Under the pieces are notes generated by a model. That model worked only from the letters and a program-made list of their open reading frames with translations, ran no database searches and was not told the origin of the DNA. Below are positions 17,487 through 56,468 of a stretch of 56,468 nucleotides of DNA, in pieces; the first letter of the stretch is position 1; the number at the start of each line of letters is the position of its first letter. The position numbers and the translations under genes were made by a program. The stretch comes from Dehalococcoidia bacterium (GTDB lineage: Bacteria; Chloroflexota; Dehalococcoidia; GIF9; AB-539-J10): NCBI GenBank assembly GCA_021157895.1, contig JAGGVQ010000007.1, positions 1 to 56,468 of the forward strand, in the 5' to 3' direction.

Positions 17487-18506
17487 ATGACGACGATTGG
17501 TATTAATGGATTTGGCCGTATCGGAAGGTTAACCCTCAGGGCAATCAAGCAATTGCATGGTAGGGATCTGGAAGTTGTCGCGGTGAATGATCTCACAGAT
17601 GTTAAAACTAGTGCGCACCTGTTTAAATATGATAGCACCTACGGTGTTTATCCTGGCACAGTGGAAGCCAAGGGAGATGCTATTGTAGTGGATGGGAGGG
17701 CAATCAAGGTGTTAGCAGAACGTGAGCCAGAAAAATTGCCCTGGCGAAAGCTGGGTGCTGAGATAATTCTGGAATCCACGGGAATATTTACTGGAATTCC
17801 AGATGCTCTTCGTCACCTTGATGCTGGCGCCAAGAGGGTAATTTTGACTGCTCGGTACAAGGGCAGTGCGGTAAATGCGGTTATGGTTAATATGGGAGTT
17901 AACCAGGATGATTACAATCCTGACCAGCACCAGCTGATTTCTATGGCTTCCTGCACTACGAATAGTTTGACTCCGCTTATGAAGGTCTTGCTGGATAATC
18001 TTGGTATTGAAAAAGCATTGATGACCACCATTCATTCTTACACCAATGATCAGAGAATTCTGGATTTTGGCCATAAAGATTTACGCCGAGCTCGTGCTGC
18101 TGCACTGTCAATAATTCCTACCACCACTAATGCTGCAGTAGCAGTCACTGAGGTTATCCCGGCGCTCAAAGGGAAGTTTGATGGAATGTCGATGCGGGTG
18201 CCGACACCTACAGGTTCACTCTCGGATGTCACTGCTATTGTTGGGCGCGATACTACCGCCGAGGAAGTAAATAGCCTGCTGAAGAAGGCTTCAGAGAATG
18301 AGATGAAGGGGATACTGGGATATACTGAAGAGCCGCTGGTATCCCGAGACATAGTGGGAACCACATATTCAGCGATTGTCGATGCCCTGTCTACGAGGGT
18401 GATGGATGGGAACATGGTTAAGGTGTTGACCTGGTATGATAACGAGTGGGCCTATAGTGCTCGGATTGCTGATCTTGCCATCTATATTGCCAGCAAAGGC
18501 CTGTAG
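17487..18506 (+). CDS. gap: glyceraldehyde-3-phosphate dehydrogenase (type I)
   Basis: INGFGRIGR, ASCTTN, RRARAAA, WYDNEW; AGGAGG RBS. Confidence 0.97.
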   Translation: MTTIGINGFGRIGRLTLRAIKQLHGRDLEVVAVNDLTDVKTSAHLFKYDSTYGVYPGTVEAKGDAIVVDGRAIKVLAEREPEKLPWRKLGAEIILESTGIFTGIPDALRHLDAGAKRVILTARYKGSAVNAVMVNMGVNQDDYNPDQHQLISMASCTTNSLTPLMKVLLDNLGIEKALMTTIHSYTNDQRILDFGHKDLRRARAAALSIIPTTTNAAVAVTEVIPALKGKFDGMSMRVPTPTGSLSDVTAIVGRDTTAEEVNSLLKKASENEMKGILGYTEEPLVSRDIVGTTYSAIVDALSTRVMDGNMVKVLTWYDNEWAYSARIADLAIYIASKGL

Positions 18507-18563
18507 AATGTCCTGGTAGCAGTGGGTACTGTTTGGGCGGGAATGCGTTATATATTAGCCCAA

Positions 18564-18588
18564 TAAACTTTTCCTTATTCCTTTCGTT
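18564..18588 (+). promoter_or_regulatory. possible autoregulatory ECF promoter
   Basis: TAAAC-N16-CGTT upstream of the ECF sigma gene; a TATAAT also lies at 18595-18600. Confidence 0.4.
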
Positions 18589-18613
18589 TTTCACTATAAT
18601 AGACATCACGCCG

Positions 18614-19153
18614 ATGTCTAGTGAGAAAGATGTAGTCGCTCGAGCAATAAAGGGGGATGGGGAAGCTTTTACTCAGCTCTATGAGGCAAACTTCGATAGG
18701 ATATATCGCTATATTTACCTGAGAGTAGGAAATATATCTGAAGCTGAGGATTTAACCCAAGAGGTGTTTGTTAAGGCTATGGGAGCGCTTTCCTCATATC
18801 GCTGGCGGAATTTGCCCTTTATCTCCTGGCTGTTTCGCATTGCTCGCAACCAGGTTATTGATTACCTGAGGAAGAGGGATAAAGTGGTGACACAGGAACT
18901 GGATGACAATATTACTCTGCATGCAGAGTCGGGTCCTGCGGATATCACTGAACGGAAGCTTGAGATTGAGAAACTGGCGGGGTTAATCGACAAATTGTCT
19001 CCAGCGCAAAAGGAAGTGATTATCCTCCGTTTTAGCTCCGAACTCTCCATCATCGAGACAGCTACTGCCTTGGGGAAAAAACAAGGAACGATTAAGGCTT
19101 TACAGTATACAGGGATAATGGCGCTGAGGAATATGGTGTTTGAGGATAAATAG
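18614..19153 (+). CDS. ECF-family RNA polymerase sigma factor
   Basis: GDGEAF..LY, AEDLTQEVF, WLFRIARN..IDY, region 4 LSPAQKEVIILRF; start placed at ATG 18614. Confidence 0.92.
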   Translation: MSSEKDVVARAIKGDGEAFTQLYEANFDRIYRYIYLRVGNISEAEDLTQEVFVKAMGALSSYRWRNLPFISWLFRIARNQVIDYLRKRDKVVTQELDDNITLHAESGPADITERKLEIEKLAGLIDKLSPAQKEVIILRFSSELSIIETATALGKKQGTIKALQYTGIMALRNMVFEDK

Positions 19154-19156
19154 TTG

Positions 19157-19969
19157 ATGACACAGCAAATGCAGGATGTATTGGTTCGGTGTATAGAGCG
19201 GTTATCTGCCGGGGATAGAGTGGAAAATTGCCTTAGGGATTATCCGGAGCAGGCTTCTGAGTTGAAGCCGTTGTTGCAGACTACCATTGCTGTTCGACGA
19301 AGTTGCTCTGCCGTTAAACCACGGGCGGAGTATAAAGCTAAGGTTTATGACTATCTGGAACAGTTATATTGTGATAGACAAGCCAGGAAGGGAAGAGGAT
19401 GGAGCTTTTTCGCCTGGCATAGGCATTGGGCTGTGGCTATGATAGCTGTTGTGATGGTGTTATTTTCTGGCATGGGGATAGTCGTGGCATCTTCTGGGGC
19501 TTTGCCTGGTGAGTCCCTTTATACGATAAAGCTGGTCACGGAGAAAGTAAAGCTGGCGACCTCTGTATCTGATATGCATAAGGCGAAATTGCACATTCAA
19601 TTTGCCGAAAGGAGAGCAGATGAGATCGCGCGGTTGGTTCGAGAGGGCAAAACTGAATCTATACCTGCTTTGACCGATGAAATTGGGAATCAGTTGAATT
19701 GTGTAATTTTTGGGTCTCGGGCAATGAAGAATTTTCAGGCAGGAGATTCCCAATTGCCTTCTACTGAGAATTTCTGGATGGGGAGTGCGGAAGAAAGTGA
19801 AGTTACCGAGATAATAGAATTGTTACACCAAAGTCGAGAGCGAAGCCTGCATGAATTGAATGATGCCTTGTCTCAAAGTTCATTGACGGCCTTACCCAGT
19901 CTGGAACAGGCCATAAGAGATACAAGTCAGGCTTATGATGATACACTGCTCATACTGGAGGGTGACTAG
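19157..19969 (+). CDS. putative anti-sigma factor (single TM, DUF5667-like extracytoplasmic domain)
   Basis: Follows the ECF sigma; VENCL..YP...EL.PLL N-terminus, TM helix, ALPGESLYTIKL..E motif. Confidence 0.75.
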   Translation: MTQQMQDVLVRCIERLSAGDRVENCLRDYPEQASELKPLLQTTIAVRRSCSAVKPRAEYKAKVYDYLEQLYCDRQARKGRGWSFFAWHRHWAVAMIAVVMVLFSGMGIVVASSGALPGESLYTIKLVTEKVKLATSVSDMHKAKLHIQFAERRADEIARLVREGKTESIPALTDEIGNQLNCVIFGSRAMKNFQAGDSQLPSTENFWMGSAEESEVTEIIELLHQSRERSLHELNDALSQSSLTALPSLEQAIRDTSQAYDDTLLILEGD

Positions 19970-20005
19970 CCTTTTGGAGAGGTAGTAACCAGGGTATAAT
20001 AAGCG

Positions 20006-21607
20006 GTGTCTATGGAATGGGAAGTTCTTTATCGTAAGTGGCGCCCGCAAACCTTGGCTCAGGTTGTGGGACAGCATGTGGTGACTGAGACTTTGTGTCA
20101 TGCTGTTGAGAAGGGAGAAATAGGGCATGCATATCTCTTTTGCGGTCCTCGAGGTACAGGGAAAACCAGCACGGCTCGTATTTTGGCCAAGGCCGTGAAT
20201 TGCCCCCAGCAGAAGGGGGGAGAGCCGTGCAATGCTTGTGATATTTGCACCTCAATCACTGAAGGCAGGGCTTTGGACGTGATTGAGATAGATGCTGCCA
20301 GCAATCGCGGCATTGATGATATTCGTAGTCTCAGGGAGAAGGTCAATTACTCGCCGCAGCGGGCCAGGTACAAGGTATATATCATAGATGAAGTACACAT
20401 GCTTACTGAGGCAGCGGCCAATGCGTTATTGAAAACCCTGGAGGAGCCTCCAGAGCATGTTATTTTCATCTTGGCCACAACGGAGCCTCACAAAGTCATA
20501 TCCACTATCATGTCGCGATGCCAGAGATTTGATTTTCGCCGTTTACCGCAGGATACTATAGCCACCAAGTTGGAGGGGATAAGTCATAGTGAAAACATAA
20601 CTATCGCTCCTGAGTCGTTGAGACTCATTGCCCATGTAGCTGGTGGAAGTCTTCGAGACGCGGAGAACATATTACAGCAGTTAATTGCTTATCATGGGCA
20701 CGAGGTTGATGCTGGTCAAGTTGAAGAGATGCTTGGAGTTAGTGAAGATTCGAGGATCGGACCTCTAGTCGCAAGCATAGTTAATAAGGATGTTTCCACT
20801 GGTTTGAAGATTATCAATATGGTTGGCAGTGATGCTGTGAATCTGCGCCAATTTACCCAGGGATTAGTGAAGGAGCTACGCGGCTTGTTATTAGCCAAGA
20901 CTCGATGTGGTGAGATTCTGGACGTCGCAGCTGATGATCTGGCAGAGATGGAACGATTGGTGACTGGAGTCGACGTTGGTTTCTTGCTGCGAGCGGTCAA
21001 GCGCTTTGCTGATATTGATTTTCGTGGCAATGGCTATTCCACGTTGCCTTTGGAATTAGCCCTGGTGGAGTGCACGTTGTCTCCAGTTGTAGTCTATGGT
21101 GAGTCTTCGGACTCGAGTTCAGAGAAGATAGAGCAAGCGGTGAAGGGGGAAGAGAAGAAGGAGGTTGTTGTCTTATCACCAGGCTCTACCGTATCTTCTT
21201 CGCTGAGCAAGCCTCCTGTTTCCGAGGATATTTCCAGTACTGTAGGTGAAAGCGATGCTAGTGATATCGATTATTTTCATGGTCAATGGGGGAGGTTCAT
21301 CGATTCTTTGCGGGGGGAGGGCTCAGGAGGTACTCTGGATGCGTTTTTACGGAGTGCCTGCGAACCGATAGGTATTGATAATGACACTCTGGTATTGGGA
21401 TTTTATTATCCTTTTCACAAGGAAAAGATCGAGGAGCCCAAGTATAAGAGTTTGGTGGAGAAAAAAATCAAGGAGATTTTTGGCAAGCCTTATGCTGTAA
21501 AGTGTGTATTAATTGATTCTAAGAAAGACACGTCGCTGAAGCGCAGTAAAGGTAGTCCCTTAATTCAGGCGGCGCTGGAAATGGGGGGTAAAATCGAAAA
21601 TGGATAA
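20006..21607 (+). CDS. dnaX: DNA polymerase III subunit gamma/tau
   Basis: LYRKWRP, GPRGTGKT, Zn motif, IDEVHML, SRC. Confidence 0.97.
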   Translation: MSMEWEVLYRKWRPQTLAQVVGQHVVTETLCHAVEKGEIGHAYLFCGPRGTGKTSTARILAKAVNCPQQKGGEPCNACDICTSITEGRALDVIEIDAASNRGIDDIRSLREKVNYSPQRARYKVYIIDEVHMLTEAAANALLKTLEEPPEHVIFILATTEPHKVISTIMSRCQRFDFRRLPQDTIATKLEGISHSENITIAPESLRLIAHVAGGSLRDAENILQQLIAYHGHEVDAGQVEEMLGVSEDSRIGPLVASIVNKDVSTGLKIINMVGSDAVNLRQFTQGLVKELRGLLLAKTRCGEILDVAADDLAEMERLVTGVDVGFLLRAVKRFADIDFRGNGYSTLPLELALVECTLSPVVVYGESSDSSSEKIEQAVKGEEKKEVVVLSPGSTVSSSLSKPPVSEDISSTVGESDASDIDYFHGQWGRFIDSLRGEGSGGTLDAFLRSACEPIGIDNDTLVLGFYYPFHKEKIEEPKYKSLVEKKIKEIFGKPYAVKCVLIDSKKDTSLKRSKGSPLIQAALEMGGKIENG

Positions 21608-43580: not shown

Positions 43581-44682
43581 ATGCAACAGCAACGAGACAT
43601 GTTAAGGGCCTTGCGCCGCAGGATTTCCGATATCATGGTGCATCTTTGACATCCCTGCTAAAGAAAAGGAAATTACCAGGATAGAGCAGGAGTCAGCCAG
43701 TCCTGACTTCTGGCACTCGCCGGCAAAGGCTCAGACTATCATGCGCCACCTGGGGACCATGAAGAACCAGGTTCACACCTGGCGTAGCCTGGAGAGGAAA
43801 GTTGCTGATCTCTATGATGTCGCTGCATTAGCGGTGGAGGAGGGTGACTCTTCCCTTGAGCCAGAAGTAGACCGGGAATTGAGCGAGTTAACTGCACAGT
43901 TTGATGGCCTTGAGAGTCAGCTAATGTTCAGCAGTGACTATGATAGACGCAATGCCATTATTTCTCTTCATTCTGGAGCTGGAGGGATAGAATCGCAGGA
44001 TTGGGCTAGCATGTTGCTCAGGATGTATCTCAGGTGGGCCGAGCGACACCATTACCAGACCGAGATCTTGGATAGCTCTCCCGGGGAAGAGGCTGGCATC
44101 AAAAGTGCTGTCGTCGAGGTCAAGGGAGAATATGCCTATGGCTATCTCAGGGGTGAACGTGGGGTGCATAGATTGGTACGGCTTTCTCCCTTTGATGCTG
44201 ATCATGCACGGCATACATCCTTTGCCCTGGCAGAGGTCATCCCTGAAGCGGAGGGGGTGCTGGATATTGACATAAACCCGGCAGACTTGAAGGTGGAAAC
44301 CTTTCGGTCGAGTGGGCCTGGAGGGCAACATATGCAAAAGACGAGCAGTGCTGTGAGAATAACTCACCTGCCCACGGGGATAGTGGCAACGTGCCAGGAA
44401 GGCCGGTCTCAGTACCAGAATAAGGAAGTTGCCCAGAGAATTCTTTATGCTCGGCTCCTGGACAGGGAAATAAAGATCAGGGAGAAAGAAAGTGATACGC
44501 TCAGGGGCGAGCATGTTGATGCTGCCTGGGGCAACCAGATCAGGAGTTATGTCCTGCACCCATACCAGATGGTGAAGGACCATCGCACGGGATATGAGAC
44601 TGGCAATGCGGAGGCGGTACTGGATGGGAACCTGGATAAACTTATCGATGCCTATCTGCGTTTTGAGGTTGGAGAGAAATGA
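43581..44682 (+). CDS. prfB: peptide chain release factor 2 (programmed +1 frameshift)
   Basis: ATG 43581 after GGAGGAG; 22 codons to CTT-TGA-C (43644-43650); the +1 frame continues DIPAKEKEI...PDFW into the tracked ORF; SPF and GGQ motifs. Confidence 0.96.
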
Positions 44683-52813: not shown

Positions 52814-53989
52814 TTACAGTGTGGGCAGATCCTTGCCGAGCTGGGCCAGCGCATCTATCTTCCCGTGAATCTCATCCAGCTGTATCTGGTGGTCCTGCCC
52901 GTAAATCGTGCCCTTCTCATAGATTTCCTTGATGCGGGGCACGAAGGCCAGCTGGGATAATATCAGGGTGACATCGATGAAATGCTTTTCCCCGGGAAAA
53001 TCTCCTCCCCGGATAACGGCCTGGGGTGCGATCTCCTTGATATAGCTGCTGACACTCTGCACCATGTCCATGCTCATCTCTTTTGCTGGGCCGGCAGTGA
53101 GATACAGGGCAAGCCCGGCGTCCCTGGGGTTGACTGATACTGACATATCTCCCACGGTGGCTTCCAGCGCCTGTGTTCCCCGGGAGCTTTCCAGCGCCTT
53201 GTCACGGAAGTGTTTCTTATTGATTTCCCATGGAAAGCGGAAGCTGGGCAGGGTAACTCTGCCGGTGCTGATGGCGGTCCAGCCCTCCAGGGATGCCATG
53301 ATGTCACCGCCGTCAACGGTGCGCGTGCCGACATTCTTGGCCTGCGTTACCTCGCCGGCGCACATCAGGTCGTAGAACGGCTCGGCGATCTGGCGGTTAA
53401 TCTTCTCGATATTGTTGACCAGGCTGGCATCCTTCTCAACGTATCTCTGGTTATCGGCCAGAAATACCGCATCGACGATGTCAAAAGTGGACTTGAGGCA
53501 GGTAGCCGTGTTATACAGGGTGCGTGATTCGGTATCCTGCTCGTGCTCGAAGGGCAATACGGCGAGGACAAACAGGGGCTTATTGATATAGCGCTCCTTG
53601 ATCATCTGGGCCACCACGGGCAGTGAACCTGAGCCTGTGCCTCCGCCGGTGCCGGCGATGAGCAGGAAGGCGTGTGTCTGGTAGAAATAAGGGTTGGACT
53701 TGATGGCATCCACGATCTTATCGCCGTCTGCCCGGGCCAGTTCCGCTCCCAGCTCGTTTAGCTTGCCCACGCCGTGGCCATGCGTCTGGCGCAAGCCGAT
53801 GAGTATGCGGTGCTTGTGATCTGTCTGGATGTATTTCAGTCCGGTCAGGTCCGCCTGGTCGGCATTCACGGCGATGACATTGGGAGCGATGACGGCCTTG
53901 CGCTCGCGGCGGGCCTTGCTATTTAATCGAGCAAACTGGTCGGCAACACGCGAGCCGCACTGCCCTAACCCGATAACAGTTAATTTCAT
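52814..53989 (-). CDS. tubulin/FtsZ-superfamily GTPase of CetZ-like type
   Basis: MKLTVIGLGQCG (T1), GHGVGK, GTGGGTGSG (T4), LPFEHE, ADNQ, VDGGDI (T7), IRGGDFP; AGGAGG RBS. Confidence 0.9.
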   Translation of the reverse strand: MKLTVIGLGQCGSRVADQFARLNSKARRERKAVIAPNVIAVNADQADLTGLKYIQTDHKHRILIGLRQTHGHGVGKLNELGAELARADGDKIVDAIKSNPYFYQTHAFLLIAGTGGGTGSGSLPVVAQMIKERYINKPLFVLAVLPFEHEQDTESRTLYNTATCLKSTFDIVDAVFLADNQRYVEKDASLVNNIEKINRQIAEPFYDLMCAGEVTQAKNVGTRTVDGGDIMASLEGWTAISTGRVTLPSFRFPWEINKKHFRDKALESSRGTQALEATVGDMSVSVNPRDAGLALYLTAGPAKEMSMDMVQSVSSYIKEIAPQAVIRGGDFPGEKHFIDVTLILSQLAFVPRIKEIYEKGTIYGQDHQIQLDEIHGKIDALAQLGKDLPTL

Positions 53990-54018
53990 TATTTATTTCC
54001 TCCTGCGGTTATGCCAAG

Positions 54019-54048
54019 ATTATATCGTCATAGTGCCTCTCGCTGCAA
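54019..54048 (-). promoter_or_regulatory. promoter of the tubulin/FtsZ-like gene
   Basis: TTGCAG-N18-TATAAT. Confidence 0.5.
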
Positions 54049-54104
54049 GGGCAAGGGCATTTTTGAGAGAGACAACAAAAGTTTTGTGAACTGGCAGTGG
54101 GAGC

Positions 54105-55766
54105 TTAGTAGTAATATCTGCTCCTTGACCTGATGTAGAATACCAGCCCGACAATGAGTGCTATTGCCAGGACAACAACAGCGATGGCCGCCCACTGGGG
54201 CATATAGCCGGCGCGGAAGGTCTGGACATCCGACCACGAGCCGGTGTTCATGGCTCCATCAATGGCTCTTATTTGCCACTGGTAGCTGCCGTAGGGAAGG
54301 GAATACTCCCCTGCTAGGGAATAGCTGGTGCTGTTGGTGCCGGCCTGGGTAGCTGACGGCAGGATGACCAGGGGCGATGAAAATACGGGAGTGACATTGG
54401 TGGTGCCATTGACGACCCTCACCTGGTATATCTGCAGCTCATATTTATTGATTCCGCTGGTGTCGCTTATGGTGGTCCAGGTAAATGTGGGGCGGACCTT
54501 TCCGAGCAAATTGCCCAGGACGCCTGTTCGCTTGCCATTCAGGGGAGAGAGCGGAGTTATCTTGGCCGGCGCCGTCGATTCCATGACGAAGTTGGTGCTT
54601 GCAATGGCGCTGGCTCCATAGGTGGCCTGCACCGGGTGGTTTGTGGTGTGCGTGCTCTGGGTGTGGGTAGCGGTAAAGCTGACGCCGCTGAAGGTGCCGG
54701 TGGCGCTGGTGGTCACAGAGCCTATCGTGGCGCCATCATAGCTTAAAGTTAAGGGGATATTGGCACTGAAGCCACTTCCCGAGACATTTACTACCTGCCC
54801 CACGTGACCCGGAGAACTGGTGCTGGCGGCCGGGTTCAATATGATTTTTGGGCTCAGCGTGAACTCGGTTGATGCCACGGAAGTGGTGGCGCTGCCGAGG
54901 TAGGCCTCGATATCATAGGTGCCCTGTATGTGTGAGGGCACGACGAAGTTTACCGGTCCCCAGCTTCCCCTGCTATCGGATGCGATGTTGCTGAGCACGG
55001 TCTCGCCGTCGAACTTCAGCTTGATGTCAGTCCTCCCGCCACTGAAACCGGTGCCGGAAGCGGTGACGCTGTCACCAACGAAACCCGTGCTGGGGCTTGC
55101 CGTGATATCCCTCAGCACCTCGAAGTCAGGCGCAGACATGACCAGAACATCATCCTCGTACAGCTTCAGGTCATGTGAGCCCCTGGTGGAAGCGGGCACG
55201 GTGAAGGTTATGGTTAGTGAGCCATACTCGTCGGTCTCCAGGTTATCGGCCACTGTCTCGTAGCTGCTGCTGGTATAGTAGTAGCGCAGGCTGATGTCAT
55301 CGGCATCCGCCTCGCCGCCGGTTACCTTTAATGTGACCTGGTCCCCCACGTGTCCCTTGCCGGAGCTGGGAGATATTATCTCGGCACTGGATGTCACGGA
55401 GAAGGTCGTGTTTGCTATAATATCATATACGGGATTATTATACTGGCCGGCGCGGATCTCGTGGTCTCCATAGGCGCTCTCCGGGATATCGGCCAGGACG
55501 GACAGGTCATCTCCAGTTTCTGTGTATGTTCCCCCGGGATTCAGCAGGACCCAGTCGTCCTCAGCCCTCTCGTAGTGTATGTAGATTGTTGTTTCCGGGA
55601 CGAAGTTTTCCCCGGTGAGCACGACACTGGTTTCCACGGGGCCGGTGGCGGGAGAGACATTTATTTGAGCTTCTTCAGGCCCATCAGCCTGGACGGGGCT
55701 GGTGAAAAAGGGTACTGCCAGCACGCATAGCGCCAGCACGATAAACAGTCGGAATAGCAGTTTCAT
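54105..55766 (-). CDS. surface protein with Ig-like (IPT/TIG) repeats, FN3-like domain and C-terminal TM anchor
   Basis: Signal peptide MKLLFRLF...VQA after AAGGAG; four SP..G.VG..V...G.GF-type repeats; YQWQIRAIDGA.N...WS; PQW-TM-RSRSR tail. Confidence 0.85.
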   Translation of the reverse strand: MKLLFRLFIVLALCVLAVPFFTSPVQADGPEEAQINVSPATGPVETSVVLTGENFVPETTIYIHYERAEDDWVLLNPGGTYTETGDDLSVLADIPESAYGDHEIRAGQYNNPVYDIIANTTFSVTSSAEIISPSSGKGHVGDQVTLKVTGGEADADDISLRYYYTSSSYETVADNLETDEYGSLTITFTVPASTRGSHDLKLYEDDVLVMSAPDFEVLRDITASPSTGFVGDSVTASGTGFSGGRTDIKLKFDGETVLSNIASDSRGSWGPVNFVVPSHIQGTYDIEAYLGSATTSVASTEFTLSPKIILNPAASTSSPGHVGQVVNVSGSGFSANIPLTLSYDGATIGSVTTSATGTFSGVSFTATHTQSTHTTNHPVQATYGASAIASTNFVMESTAPAKITPLSPLNGKRTGVLGNLLGKVRPTFTWTTISDTSGINKYELQIYQVRVVNGTTNVTPVFSSPLVILPSATQAGTNSTSYSLAGEYSLPYGSYQWQIRAIDGAMNTGSWSDVQTFRAGYMPQWAAIAVVVLAIALIVGLVFYIRSRSRYYY

Positions 55767-55802
55767 TCGCGAACTCCTTGAATCGGTAAACATTTGCGCC
55801 AA

Positions 55803-55831
55803 AGTATAACCGTTCTTGAATATCAAGGCAA
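55803..55831 (-). promoter_or_regulatory. promoter of the Ig-like surface protein gene
   Basis: TTGCCT-N17-TATACT. Confidence 0.6.
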
Positions 55832-55837
55832 GAATAT

Positions 55838-55872
55838 AAAAGGAAAGGGGCGGGATTTACCCGCCCCTCTTT
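55838..55872 (-). terminator. intrinsic terminator after the S-layer-like gene
   Basis: Stem AGGGGCGGG-ATTTA-CCCGCCCCT (55846-55868) with T-rich tails on both strands. Confidence 0.8.
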
Positions 55873-55895
55873 TGCTAGCTTTAGCTAGCTGGTAA

Positions 55896-56468
55896 TTAGA
55901 CCCTGCGTGTCCTGAAAATGAGGACCAGGGTAACGATTACCAGTATCGCGCCGATAGCGATGACTACCCACACCCAGGAAGGAGTGGCAGGAGGTGCTGG
56001 CGGGGCAGCCGGTTCAGACTCGGTGGTGAAGGTGGAAGTGGCGCTGGTGGCAACAACGTTGCCGCTGGCGTCCTTGGCCGTGACGGTCCAGAAGTAAGTG
56101 GTGTCATAGGCCAGGTCGGAGGCACTGACGGAGAAGCTTTCGCTGGTCAGTCCGGTGCCCGAGGCAACCACGGCACCATCGGAGTCTGTCAGGGAGAAGT
56201 CATAGGTGGCATCAGGAACATTGGTCCAGGTGAAGCCCAGGGCGGCAGTTGTGCCGACCCCGGTCGCGCCGTTGTCGGGAGCGGTCAGAGACAGGATGCC
56301 CGCTTTGGGTGCGACGGAGAAGCTCCAGGTCTGAGACCAGGGGCTCCTAATAACTTCGCCGGTCTCGGCGTAGTGTGCCCTGACTCTCCAGTAGTATGTC
56401 TGTCCGGAGTCAAAGGTGTTTCCCGGTACCAGCAGTGTGGGAGTGCCCGGGTTGGAAGGCTTGTAGTA
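55896..56468 (-). CDS. C-terminal part of a large FN3-repeat surface (putative S-layer) protein; 5' end outside the window
   Basis: Frame open to the window edge (191 codons): TYYWRVRA...SPWS..WSF, TTYFWTVTA, Pro-rich linker, TPSWVWVVIAIGAILVIVTLVLIFRTRRV anchor. Confidence 0.8.
   Translation of the reverse strand, partial: YYKPSNPGTPTLLVPGNTFDSGQTYYWRVRAHYAETGEVIRSPWSQTWSFSVAPKAGILSLTAPDNGATGVGTTAALGFTWTNVPDATYDFSLTDSDGAVVASGTGLTSESFSVSASDLAYDTTYFWTVTAKDASGNVVATSATSTFTTESEPAAPPAPPATPSWVWVVIAIGAILVIVTLVLIFRTRRV

Follow-up and report, generated by a model that had tools for sequence, protein, structure and literature searches.

At the right end of a 56,468-nt contig stretch of a Dehalococcoidia bacterium (JAGGVQ010000007.1, assembly GCA_021157895.1; the whole stretch is referred to below as the window), three co-oriented minus-strand open reading frames (ORFs) encode a CetZ-like GTPase of the tubulin superfamily, a membrane protein with immunoglobulin (Ig)-like repeats (the partner), and the window-edge-cut end of another surface protein, of the fibronectin type III (FN3) type (Table 1). 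The original prediction, made from the DNA letters, had described these genes as an archaea-like tubulin homologue clustered with S-layer-type surface proteins in a bacterium. The host is indeed bacterial: the window carries genes for NAD-dependent DNA ligase, DnaG, two sigma-70 factors, an F-type ATP synthase operon, RF2, DnaX, enolase and glyceraldehyde-3-phosphate dehydrogenase (GAPDH). CetZ, by contrast, is called archaea-specific in the available text of PMC9856176 and PMC11621097, where CetZ1 is tied to rod shape and motility. Here, both the surrounding genes and the names of the relatives (Dehalococcoidia, Dehalococcoidales or Chloroflexota) are those of bacteria.

A CetZ-like GTPase encoded in a bacterial genome

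The GTPase starts with MKLTVIGLGQCG and its 391-residue translation contains GTGGGTGSG and TVDGGDI. The T1 loop reads GLGQCG, the T4 loop GGTGSG and the T7 loop TVDGGD; an RFPWE loop occupies residues 251-255 and the protein ends in KDLPTL. The GQxG signature noted in the original prediction is thus present at the start, where FtsZ has GGGG. In Pfam, the protein matched Tubulin (PF00091, 109.2 bits, cut-off 33) and CetZ_C (PF21011, 60.3 bits, cut-off 21.6), and matches to FtsZ_C, TubZ_C and TubZ-like_C were absent. The FtsZ equivalog TIGR00065 of NCBIfam was not reached (63.6 bits against a cut-off of 295.2, with residues 2-186 only being aligned). The best PDB match by phmmer was Haloferax volcanii CetZ1 (4b46, residues 1-373, E = 6.7e-45), followed by CetZ2 of the same organism (4b45, 2.3e-25) and 3zid; the best scores for other members of the superfamily were 1.6e-9 for FtsZ, 6.7e-6 for BtubB and about 5e-4 for TubZ/RepX.

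Comparison of predicted and known structures gave the same result. The AlphaFold model built from a 72-row alignment had a pLDDT of 92.8 and a pTM of 0.90 (a model from a shallow 26-row alignment, with a pLDDT of 52, was discarded). Its top Foldseek match was H. volcanii CetZ1 (E = 4.2e-34), followed by CetZ2 and two chains of Methanosaeta CetZ, with the FtsZs ranking below; the two-domain fold is the same as in CetZ1 and CetZ2, with TM scores normalised to the target of 0.93 and 0.90. Although identity to CetZ is only about 31%, the sequence match is full-length, and the CetZ_C domain, an MKLxxIGxGQxG start and a T7 loop of the form xVDxx[DE]I are common to both; neither has a long linker, and both end in a short conserved peptide. 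That the protein is a bacterial CetZ-like GTPase, probably a polymerising one, is secure, and the assignment to the CetZ type rather than to FtsZ or TubZ, made in the original prediction, holds on every one of these scores.

Two details of that prediction need comment. The T7 sequence TVDGGDI had been read correctly but had been termed divergent. In the PDB sequence alignment it lies opposite VVDSSEI of CetZ1, so the loop is typical of CetZ rather than aberrant, and it retains the acidic last residue, presumably the catalytic one, as are D212 in FtsZ, E254 in alpha-tubulin and E218 in CetZ1. The absence of a long FtsZ-type linker was recognised correctly: in the model, a helix runs over residues 351-384 and leaves only seven residues of the 391. 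The conserved peptide K[DE]LPxL in which these residues end had been overlooked. RFPWE (window 53225-53239) forms a surface loop at the position of the tubulin M-loop, modelled with a pLDDT of 67-76, and is a candidate for a lateral-contact or partner-binding site.

The protein resembles bacterial FtsZ in belonging to the tubulin/FtsZ superfamily, in GGTGSG, in the acidic T7 residue and in the form of its C-terminal peptide. A canonical FtsZ was nevertheless ruled out by the TIGR00065 score, the lack of FtsZ_C, CetZ as the best PDB match and the phylogeny described below. Neither a dcw gene nor ftsA was found among the 45 window ORFs scanned, in agreement with the original prediction that dcw genes are absent nearby.

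Family, phylogeny and end peptide

A word-indexed search returned 5556 proteins at E ≤ 0.001 among 8000 scored candidates, an unsorted set that may include other tubulin-superfamily proteins. The best 120 of these 5556 were 391-405 aa long; one was 98% identical to the window protein and the others 69-74%, and the names, where given, were 'Dehalococcoidia bacterium', 'cell division GTPase FtsZ' and 'tubulin-like protein CetZ'. In a library of 50%-identity representatives, 1199 matched at E ≤ 0.001 and 61 at E ≤ 1e-30; the cluster of the window protein itself was 72% identical, after which identity among full-length representatives dropped to at most 44%. CetZ_C was listed at E ≤ 0.001 for 76 of the 79 nearly full-length proteins among the 150 representatives listed, and 74 reached the cut-off. 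An alignment of 26 family members had a mean column identity of 82%, with GxGQCG (as GLGQCG), GGTGSG, the T7 residues D226 and D229, RFPWE, and L388, P389 and L391 invariant in all 26 rows. By these sequence comparisons, the window protein appears to belong to a large and very conserved Chloroflexota family, of which the RFPWE loop is a feature not shared with CetZ. One representative (P0214, 695 aa) carries a C-terminal AAA ATPase domain fused to a CetZ-type GTPase (Tubulin plus CetZ_C).

A profile built from the relatives with 36-44% identity led to a second subfamily from Chloroflexota/Dehalococcoidales (P0273-P0392; 389-404 aa), which is 49-53% identical to the window GTPase and ends in KD[ILV]P[ST]L. 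Since it is not sister to the subfamily of the window protein in the 49-row tree described next, it may be a paralogue. The proteins of the present family are most likely the same as the Chloroflexota-Dehalococcoidia CetZ-like group of Santana-Molina et al. 2023 (PMC9871819), whose bacterial Chloroflexota sequences match a CetZ C-terminal HMM at about 1e-10. The available text of that paper mentions the Dehalococcoidia group in passing, in one sentence that gives neither function nor neighbour, and calls the group sparse and paraphyletic, whereas in the present data the family appears to be large and under tight conservation, to comprise two subfamilies and to have a fixed neighbour.

Two quick trees were computed, both without a Thermococcales anchor (according to PMC9856176, as far as its text was available, Thermococcales CetZ sets the boundary of the canonical CetZ clade) and with most rows lacking an organism name. 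For the first, computed with IQ-TREE under LG+G4 and with E. coli FtsZ as the root, 88 rows were used: 79 representatives, the window GTPase, proteins from four of the nine related loci described below, two haloarchaeal plasmid CetZ-family proteins as anchors, E. coli FtsZ and pBtoxis TubZ. It left out L001, L004, L006, L008, L009 and 71 shorter representatives, and of P0214 only the first 400 residues were included. An ingroup of 85 rows (SH-aLRT 94), to which TubZ and one long row did not belong, was split into a 28-row clade with the window family (98) and a 57-row clade with both haloarchaeal anchors (93). In the second tree (49 rows, LG+C20 mixture model), five rows formed the window family (support 100), again in a group separate from the anchor clade (90 and 85); the base of this tree was an unresolved polytomy that included TubZ. 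Both trees thus place the window GTPase beside, and not inside, the clade of the haloarchaeal anchors, most rows of which also have higher CetZ_C scores than the window protein (up to 230.8 bits). For the original prediction, which had proposed a tubulin-superfamily phylogeny as a check, the outcome is mixed: the protein groups with neither FtsZ nor TubZ in the 88-row tree, but it does not fall within the archaeal-anchor clade in either.

A role in DNA segregation as a TubZ- or PhuZ-type GTPase of a plasmid or prophage is close to refuted. The window protein has the superfamily and a long C-terminal helix in common with TubZ and PhuZ, and such a role would be consistent with the terminase-like gene that lies directly downstream in four of the related loci (L003, L006, L007 and L008). 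However, the TubZ C-terminal domain is lacking, sequence similarity to TubZ/RepX is far weaker than to CetZ, no TubR-like gene was found among the scanned ORFs, the window neighbours are housekeeping genes, and TubZ stands outside the CetZ-like group in the larger tree (in the smaller one it is part of the basal polytomy). Moreover, when the GTPase was compared with 72,556 plasmids by tblastn, 33 records matched, all haloarchaeal by name, with no Bacillus TubZ among them. We rejected the plasmid reading on the Pfam, PDB, plasmid and 88-row tree results.

The end of the protein leaves a link to division conceivable. The pattern [ILV]Px[LF] occurs within the last 15 residues of all 120 listed matches (the best 120 of 5556), of all 120 second-subfamily matches listed from the profile search, and of 15 of the 22 other rows of the 28-row clade, compared with 3 of the 57 anchor-clade rows; 13 of these 57 have ends of the type D[IL][DE][SP]L[FL]. 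E. coli FtsZ, the outgroup, ends in DYLDIPAFLRKQAD, and its DIPAFL resembles the DLPTL and DIPSLL of the present proteins, whose DLPxL form has the proline of FtsZ. The C-terminal peptide of FtsZ is the docking site for FtsA, ZipA and SepF, and archaea without pseudomurein use two FtsZs. The GTPase could accordingly be imagined as a second division-associated protein of FtsZ type, with filaments tethered by the K[DE][LIV]Px[LF] end to FtsA or SepF and helping to constrict a wall-less cell, while the Ig-repeat neighbour would be a divisome accessory or unrelated.

Published data on cultured relatives bear on this possibility. PMC10608941 reports that Dehalococcoides mccartyi has no dcw cluster and no peptidoglycan but has an S-layer-like wall, as the original prediction had stated for cultured Dehalococcoidia; that Dehalococcoidales and SAR202 lost peptidoglycan and dcw genes; and that mraZ, mraW, ftsA and ftsZ are adjacent in every high-quality genome examined from these two groups. 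With these four genes retained, a separate canonical ftsZ is to be expected in Dehalococcoidales, and the retention of ftsA would provide the tether. In D. mccartyi 195, PMC5102406 lists FtsZ DET0343 beside FtsA DET0342 and two further proteins named FtsZ, DET0589 and DET0636. According to PMC8163811, the 'tubulin/FtsZ GTPase' btf_0551 of D. mccartyi BTF08 was quantified in pure cultures, where cells are disc-shaped, and not in co-cultures, where they are barrel-like. This protein and FtsZ were more abundant, or only quantified, in the pure cultures, and the authors of that paper link the lower level of division proteins to the barrel-shaped cells; btf_0551 is, however, only a candidate member of the present family. 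On the other side stand the lack of division genes among the scanned ORFs, the CetZ-like character of the GTPase by every score, and a neighbour without known division role that is conserved in all nine related loci. On balance, we consider a division role possible but doubtful.

The gene order around btf_0551, as given in the supplement of PMC8163811, is recR, hypothetical, dnaX, three hypotheticals, 'tubulin/FtsZ GTPase', GAPDH, so that the gene lies between three hypothetical genes and that for GAPDH, near dnaX and recR. Genes for DnaX, RecR and GAPDH are also found near the CetZ-like locus in L002, L003 or the window (window 17487-21607; L002:8211-12289). This gene order suggests that the neighbourhoods may be orthologous and that btf_0550 may be the partner.

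The Ig-repeat membrane partner and the proposed pair

Nine related loci, all of one bacterial class, were found in genome contigs with very specific peptide patterns. They come from metagenome-assembled genomes (MAGs) of Dehalococcoidia or Dehalococcoidales, and in eight of the nine the GTPase is 67-75% identical to that of the window; the closest record, L001, is a 3.8-kb contig of a Dehalococcoidia MAG whose DNA is 93.6% identical over 3866 bases. A homologue of the partner lies directly upstream of the GTPase gene and is co-oriented with it in all nine (tblastn), being cut by the contig end in L005 and L006. The predicted linkage to an Ig-repeat membrane protein is, therefore, conserved.

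The same does not apply to the third gene. Its visible part (190 aa) has Ig_Rha78A_N/FN3-like repeats, a transmembrane (TM) segment and the tail RTRRV, but a tblastn search found no homologue in any of the nine loci, three of which extend far enough upstream for the comparison, and between it and the partner gene lies a terminator-like hairpin. The conserved unit accordingly consists of two genes, not three. Of the three-gene cluster originally proposed, the pair stands and the FN3-type gene drops out; the two upstream genes are co-oriented as described, whereas 'large', said of a protein cut by the window edge, refers to something of which only these residues can be seen. The label 'S-layer-type' is unsupported. 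In nine of ten members the partner matched only TIG and Ig_Rha78A_N in Pfam, and no S-layer or SLH family; a profile of the partner family found nothing below E = 0.19 in the PDB and no match named as an S-layer protein. Its sequence shows features expected of an exposed Ig-like surface protein, and we predict it to be one.

The partner ORF was listed from a TTG codon (54105-55826), but every homologue starts with the Met of MKLLxRL, which places the true start at the ATG at 55766. The resulting 553-aa protein has a signal peptide, followed by TIG/Ig-like repeats and, close to the membrane, an FN3-like (Ig_Rha78A_N) domain; it ends in a single C-terminal TM segment and a basic cytoplasmic tail of about nine residues. 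It is 89% identical to its homologue in L001 and 35-38% to the other eight. Most of the columns that are invariant fall in the C-terminal half, which contains the FN3-like domain, G520, P523 and W525 on the outer TM edge, and the tail residues R548 and Y552. The tail reads IRSRSRYYY in the window and TRRKGYYD, IKRRSDYD, IKRRRYYY, IRPRRYYYD or IRDRVGLYD in homologues; the partner family and its tail motif were sampled in ten sequences. The YY[YD] end is absent from the two other anchored surface proteins seen, the FN3-type protein of the window and a PKD-repeat protein of L007. A search with the last 144 residues of the partner recovered only the window and L001 proteins. Look-alikes in the ESM Atlas suggest several Chloroflexota clusters of TIG/Ig_Rha78A_N proteins. 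Both surface proteins of the window end in P-x-W, a TM segment and a basic tail (54105-54230 and 55896-56010) and share FN3-like modules with the signature Y(Y/F/Q)W..(R/T)A.D.

The tripartite end of the partner, with its invariant G..P.W, hydrophobic stretch and basic residues, might also be a cleaved or processed sorting signal comparable to LPXTG, PEP-CTERM or PGF-CTERM, in which case the mature protein would have no cytoplasmic tail and the interpretation given below would have to be modified. The similar P.W, TM and RTRRV end of the FN3-type protein would fit such a signal. We regard this as improbable: no CTERM-type NCBIfam sorting model matched at E ≤ 0.1, the ORFs scanned in the window included no sortase, exosortase, archaeosortase or rhombosortase family, and the conserved YY[YD] end exceeds what a plain basic stop-transfer tail would need.

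The spacer between the two genes varies, from 19 nt (L006, L007 and L008) through 39-41 nt (L005 and L002) and 106-115 nt (L001, L004 and the window) to 363-426 nt (L009 and L003). In the window spacer, a scanner listed only a site that overlaps the start codon and is weaker than the TTGCAG-18 nt-TATAAT read by eye. The surroundings vary as well. Of the seven loci that extend 900 nt or more downstream, three have PHO4 as the directly adjacent downstream gene; in L003, PHO4 is 2.8 kb away, separated from the CetZ-like gene by a terminase-like gene and a 113-aa ORF. A terminase-like gene also adjoins the CetZ-like gene in L006 to L008, and the 113-aa ORF recurs in L007. Upstream, the three testable loci differ: L007 has a PKD-repeat anchored protein, L003 has Uma2 and an InlB-B-repeat fragment, and L004 has a CoA-transferase. 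The block CoaE, radical SAM, AMMECR1, PhoU-like, PHO4 and cetZ-like is, on the other hand, common to the window, L002, L003 and L005.

The adjacency could be inherited gene order devoid of functional coupling, with the GTPase acting alone or with unlinked partners. The origin of all nine loci from one class, the longer syntenic block in four of the sequences, spacers of up to 426 nt and the much faster evolution of the partner (35-38% identity as against 67-75% for the GTPase, each in eight of nine) would all be expected in that case. Yet the pair is kept where the flanks change (upstream in L003, L004 and L007; downstream in L003, L006, L007 and L008), the spacer is as short as 19 nt in three loci and 19-41 nt in five of the nine, and the tail and the TM-edge residues of the partner are conserved while its ectodomain drifts. 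We therefore consider mere inheritance of gene order unlikely.

The explanation that we favour, if tentatively and at somewhat less than an even chance, is that the GTPase forms a membrane filament independent of FtsZ and FtsA, coupled to the surface through its bitopic neighbour and contributing to envelope organisation or shape. The nucleotide-binding and T7 motifs are intact, and, like CetZ and FtsZ, the protein most likely binds GTP and forms head-to-tail polymers, the T7 aspartate of one subunit presumably completing the active site of the next. It would most likely work at the inner face of the membrane, apart from the FtsZ/FtsA division pair kept by Dehalococcoidales. The Ig-repeat TM neighbour, presumably in contact with the GTPase, may be the membrane receptor or the cargo of the filament; together the two would connect a cytoplasmic filament to the cell surface and help to organise the envelope or shape in a lineage without peptidoglycan. 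The findings hint at an archaeal-style cytoskeleton in bacteria that lack a peptidoglycan wall, and the 'morphogenesis module' of the original prediction is something that we, too, can only infer. A bolder version is speculative and in our estimate rather doubtful. It holds that the filament, together with the bitopic Ig-like neighbour, makes up a coupling device across the membrane that positions or patterns a surface protein layer and took over morphogenesis, for instance of the Dehalococcoides disc shape, after the ancestor of Dehalococcoidales and SAR202 had lost peptidoglycan.

Several observations weigh against the favoured explanation. The FtsZ-like end peptide D[LIV]PxL points to another anchor, and a cytoplasmic tail of about nine residues offers a small surface for specific contact. 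Spacers of 106-426 nt in the window and four loci, together with a good -10-like element in the window, may indicate separate transcription. The nine loci represent one class and about four lineages, with L001 nearly identical to the window, so that shared ancestry explains part of the adjacency. Because the family lies outside the archaeal-anchor clade, the shape role of CetZ1 is not simply transferable to it. Peptidoglycan loss and the retention of ftsZ are reported for Dehalococcoidales and SAR202 rather than for this genome, and no experiment exists on any member of the GTPase family. The original description of the family as functionally unstudied was nearly right: the published literature on CetZ in Chloroflexota or Dehalococcoidia yielded no paper on the conserved pair or on the function of these proteins, and the exceptions are the passing mention in PMC9871819 and, should it belong to the family, the quantified BTF08 protein.

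If the bolder version is correct, the RxRRxYY[YD] tail of the partner would be the first receptor at the membrane to be identified for any filament of the CetZ type, and the coupling device would help to explain how the envelope is reached by archaeal CetZ. CetZ is usually called archaea-specific, and the available text of PMC9856176 and PMC11621097 names no membrane partner for it, nor is a neighbour of the present kind given in that of PMC9856176; here, a constrained bacterial sister family has a fixed transmembrane neighbour. The pair is a testable candidate, in the form of a defined peptide and protein, for setting the shape of a wall-less, S-layer-coated bacterium. Dehalococcoidia, among which are the main organohalide-respiring organisms of bioremediation, abound in sediments and aquifers, so that knowledge of so basic a part of their cell biology would be widely useful.

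Flanking genes and other features of the window

The positions of the three genes and the elements between them are given in Table 1, together with those of the terminase-like genes of other loci. The nearest neighbours of the CetZ-like gene in the window are PHO4, a PhoU-like gene, AMMECR1, a radical-SAM gene and CoaE.

Table 1. Features at the right end of the window and terminase-like genes of related loci
Feature	Position	Strand or orientation	Evidence
CetZ-like tubulin-superfamily GTPase, 391 aa (P0001)	52814..53989	-	Pfam, NCBIfam, PDB search, model
Spacer from partner gene to CetZ-like gene, 115 nt	53990..54104	-	AGGAGG before ATG; TTGCAG-18 nt-TATAAT by eye
Partner gene, 553-aa type-I membrane protein	54105..55766	-	Homologue alignment, Pfam
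Terminator-like hairpin, 11 pairs (8 G-C), then T-rich run	55844..55870	-	Between FN3-type and partner genes
Neighbouring surface-protein gene, 3' end, cut by window edge	55896..56468	-	FN3-like/Ig_Rha78A_N repeats, P.W + TM + RTRRV
Terminase-like gene, L003	5310-7449	convergent	Terminase_6C
Terminase-like gene, L006	2125-3618	convergent	Terminase_6C
Terminase-like gene, L007	5737-7475	convergent	Terminase_6C
Terminase-like gene, L008	3090-3665	convergent	Terminase_6C

The terminase-like genes, each 3' of the CetZ-like gene, resemble those for the terminase large subunit (Terminase_6C, E = 1.4e-4 to 2e-7).

GC content at third codon positions (GC3) climbs along the contig (window 43000-56468): genes up to 43 kb have values of about 0.44-0.61 (mostly 0.45-0.55), those between 43 and 52.8 kb 0.49-0.66, and the three minus-strand genes 0.69-0.73. 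Elsewhere, in the other loci, the pair exceeds flanks of 1 kb or more by no more than about 4 GC points. Recombination with a higher-GC relative, an assembly chimera or expression-linked codon bias could each account for the rise. The idea that it reflects a recent transfer of the pair as an island is unsupported by the synteny common to L002, L003 and L005.

A partial tRNA gene, truncated by the window start, was detected at positions 1-43 on the minus strand (Rfam RF00005, 32.2 bits); ARAGORN found no whole tRNA in the window. The RF2 gene (window 43581-44682, plus strand) has the classic programmed +1 frameshift: the short frame MQQQRDMLRALRRRISDIMVHL stops at CTT TGA C (CTTTGA at 43644), and the PCRF/RF-1 frame goes on in +1.

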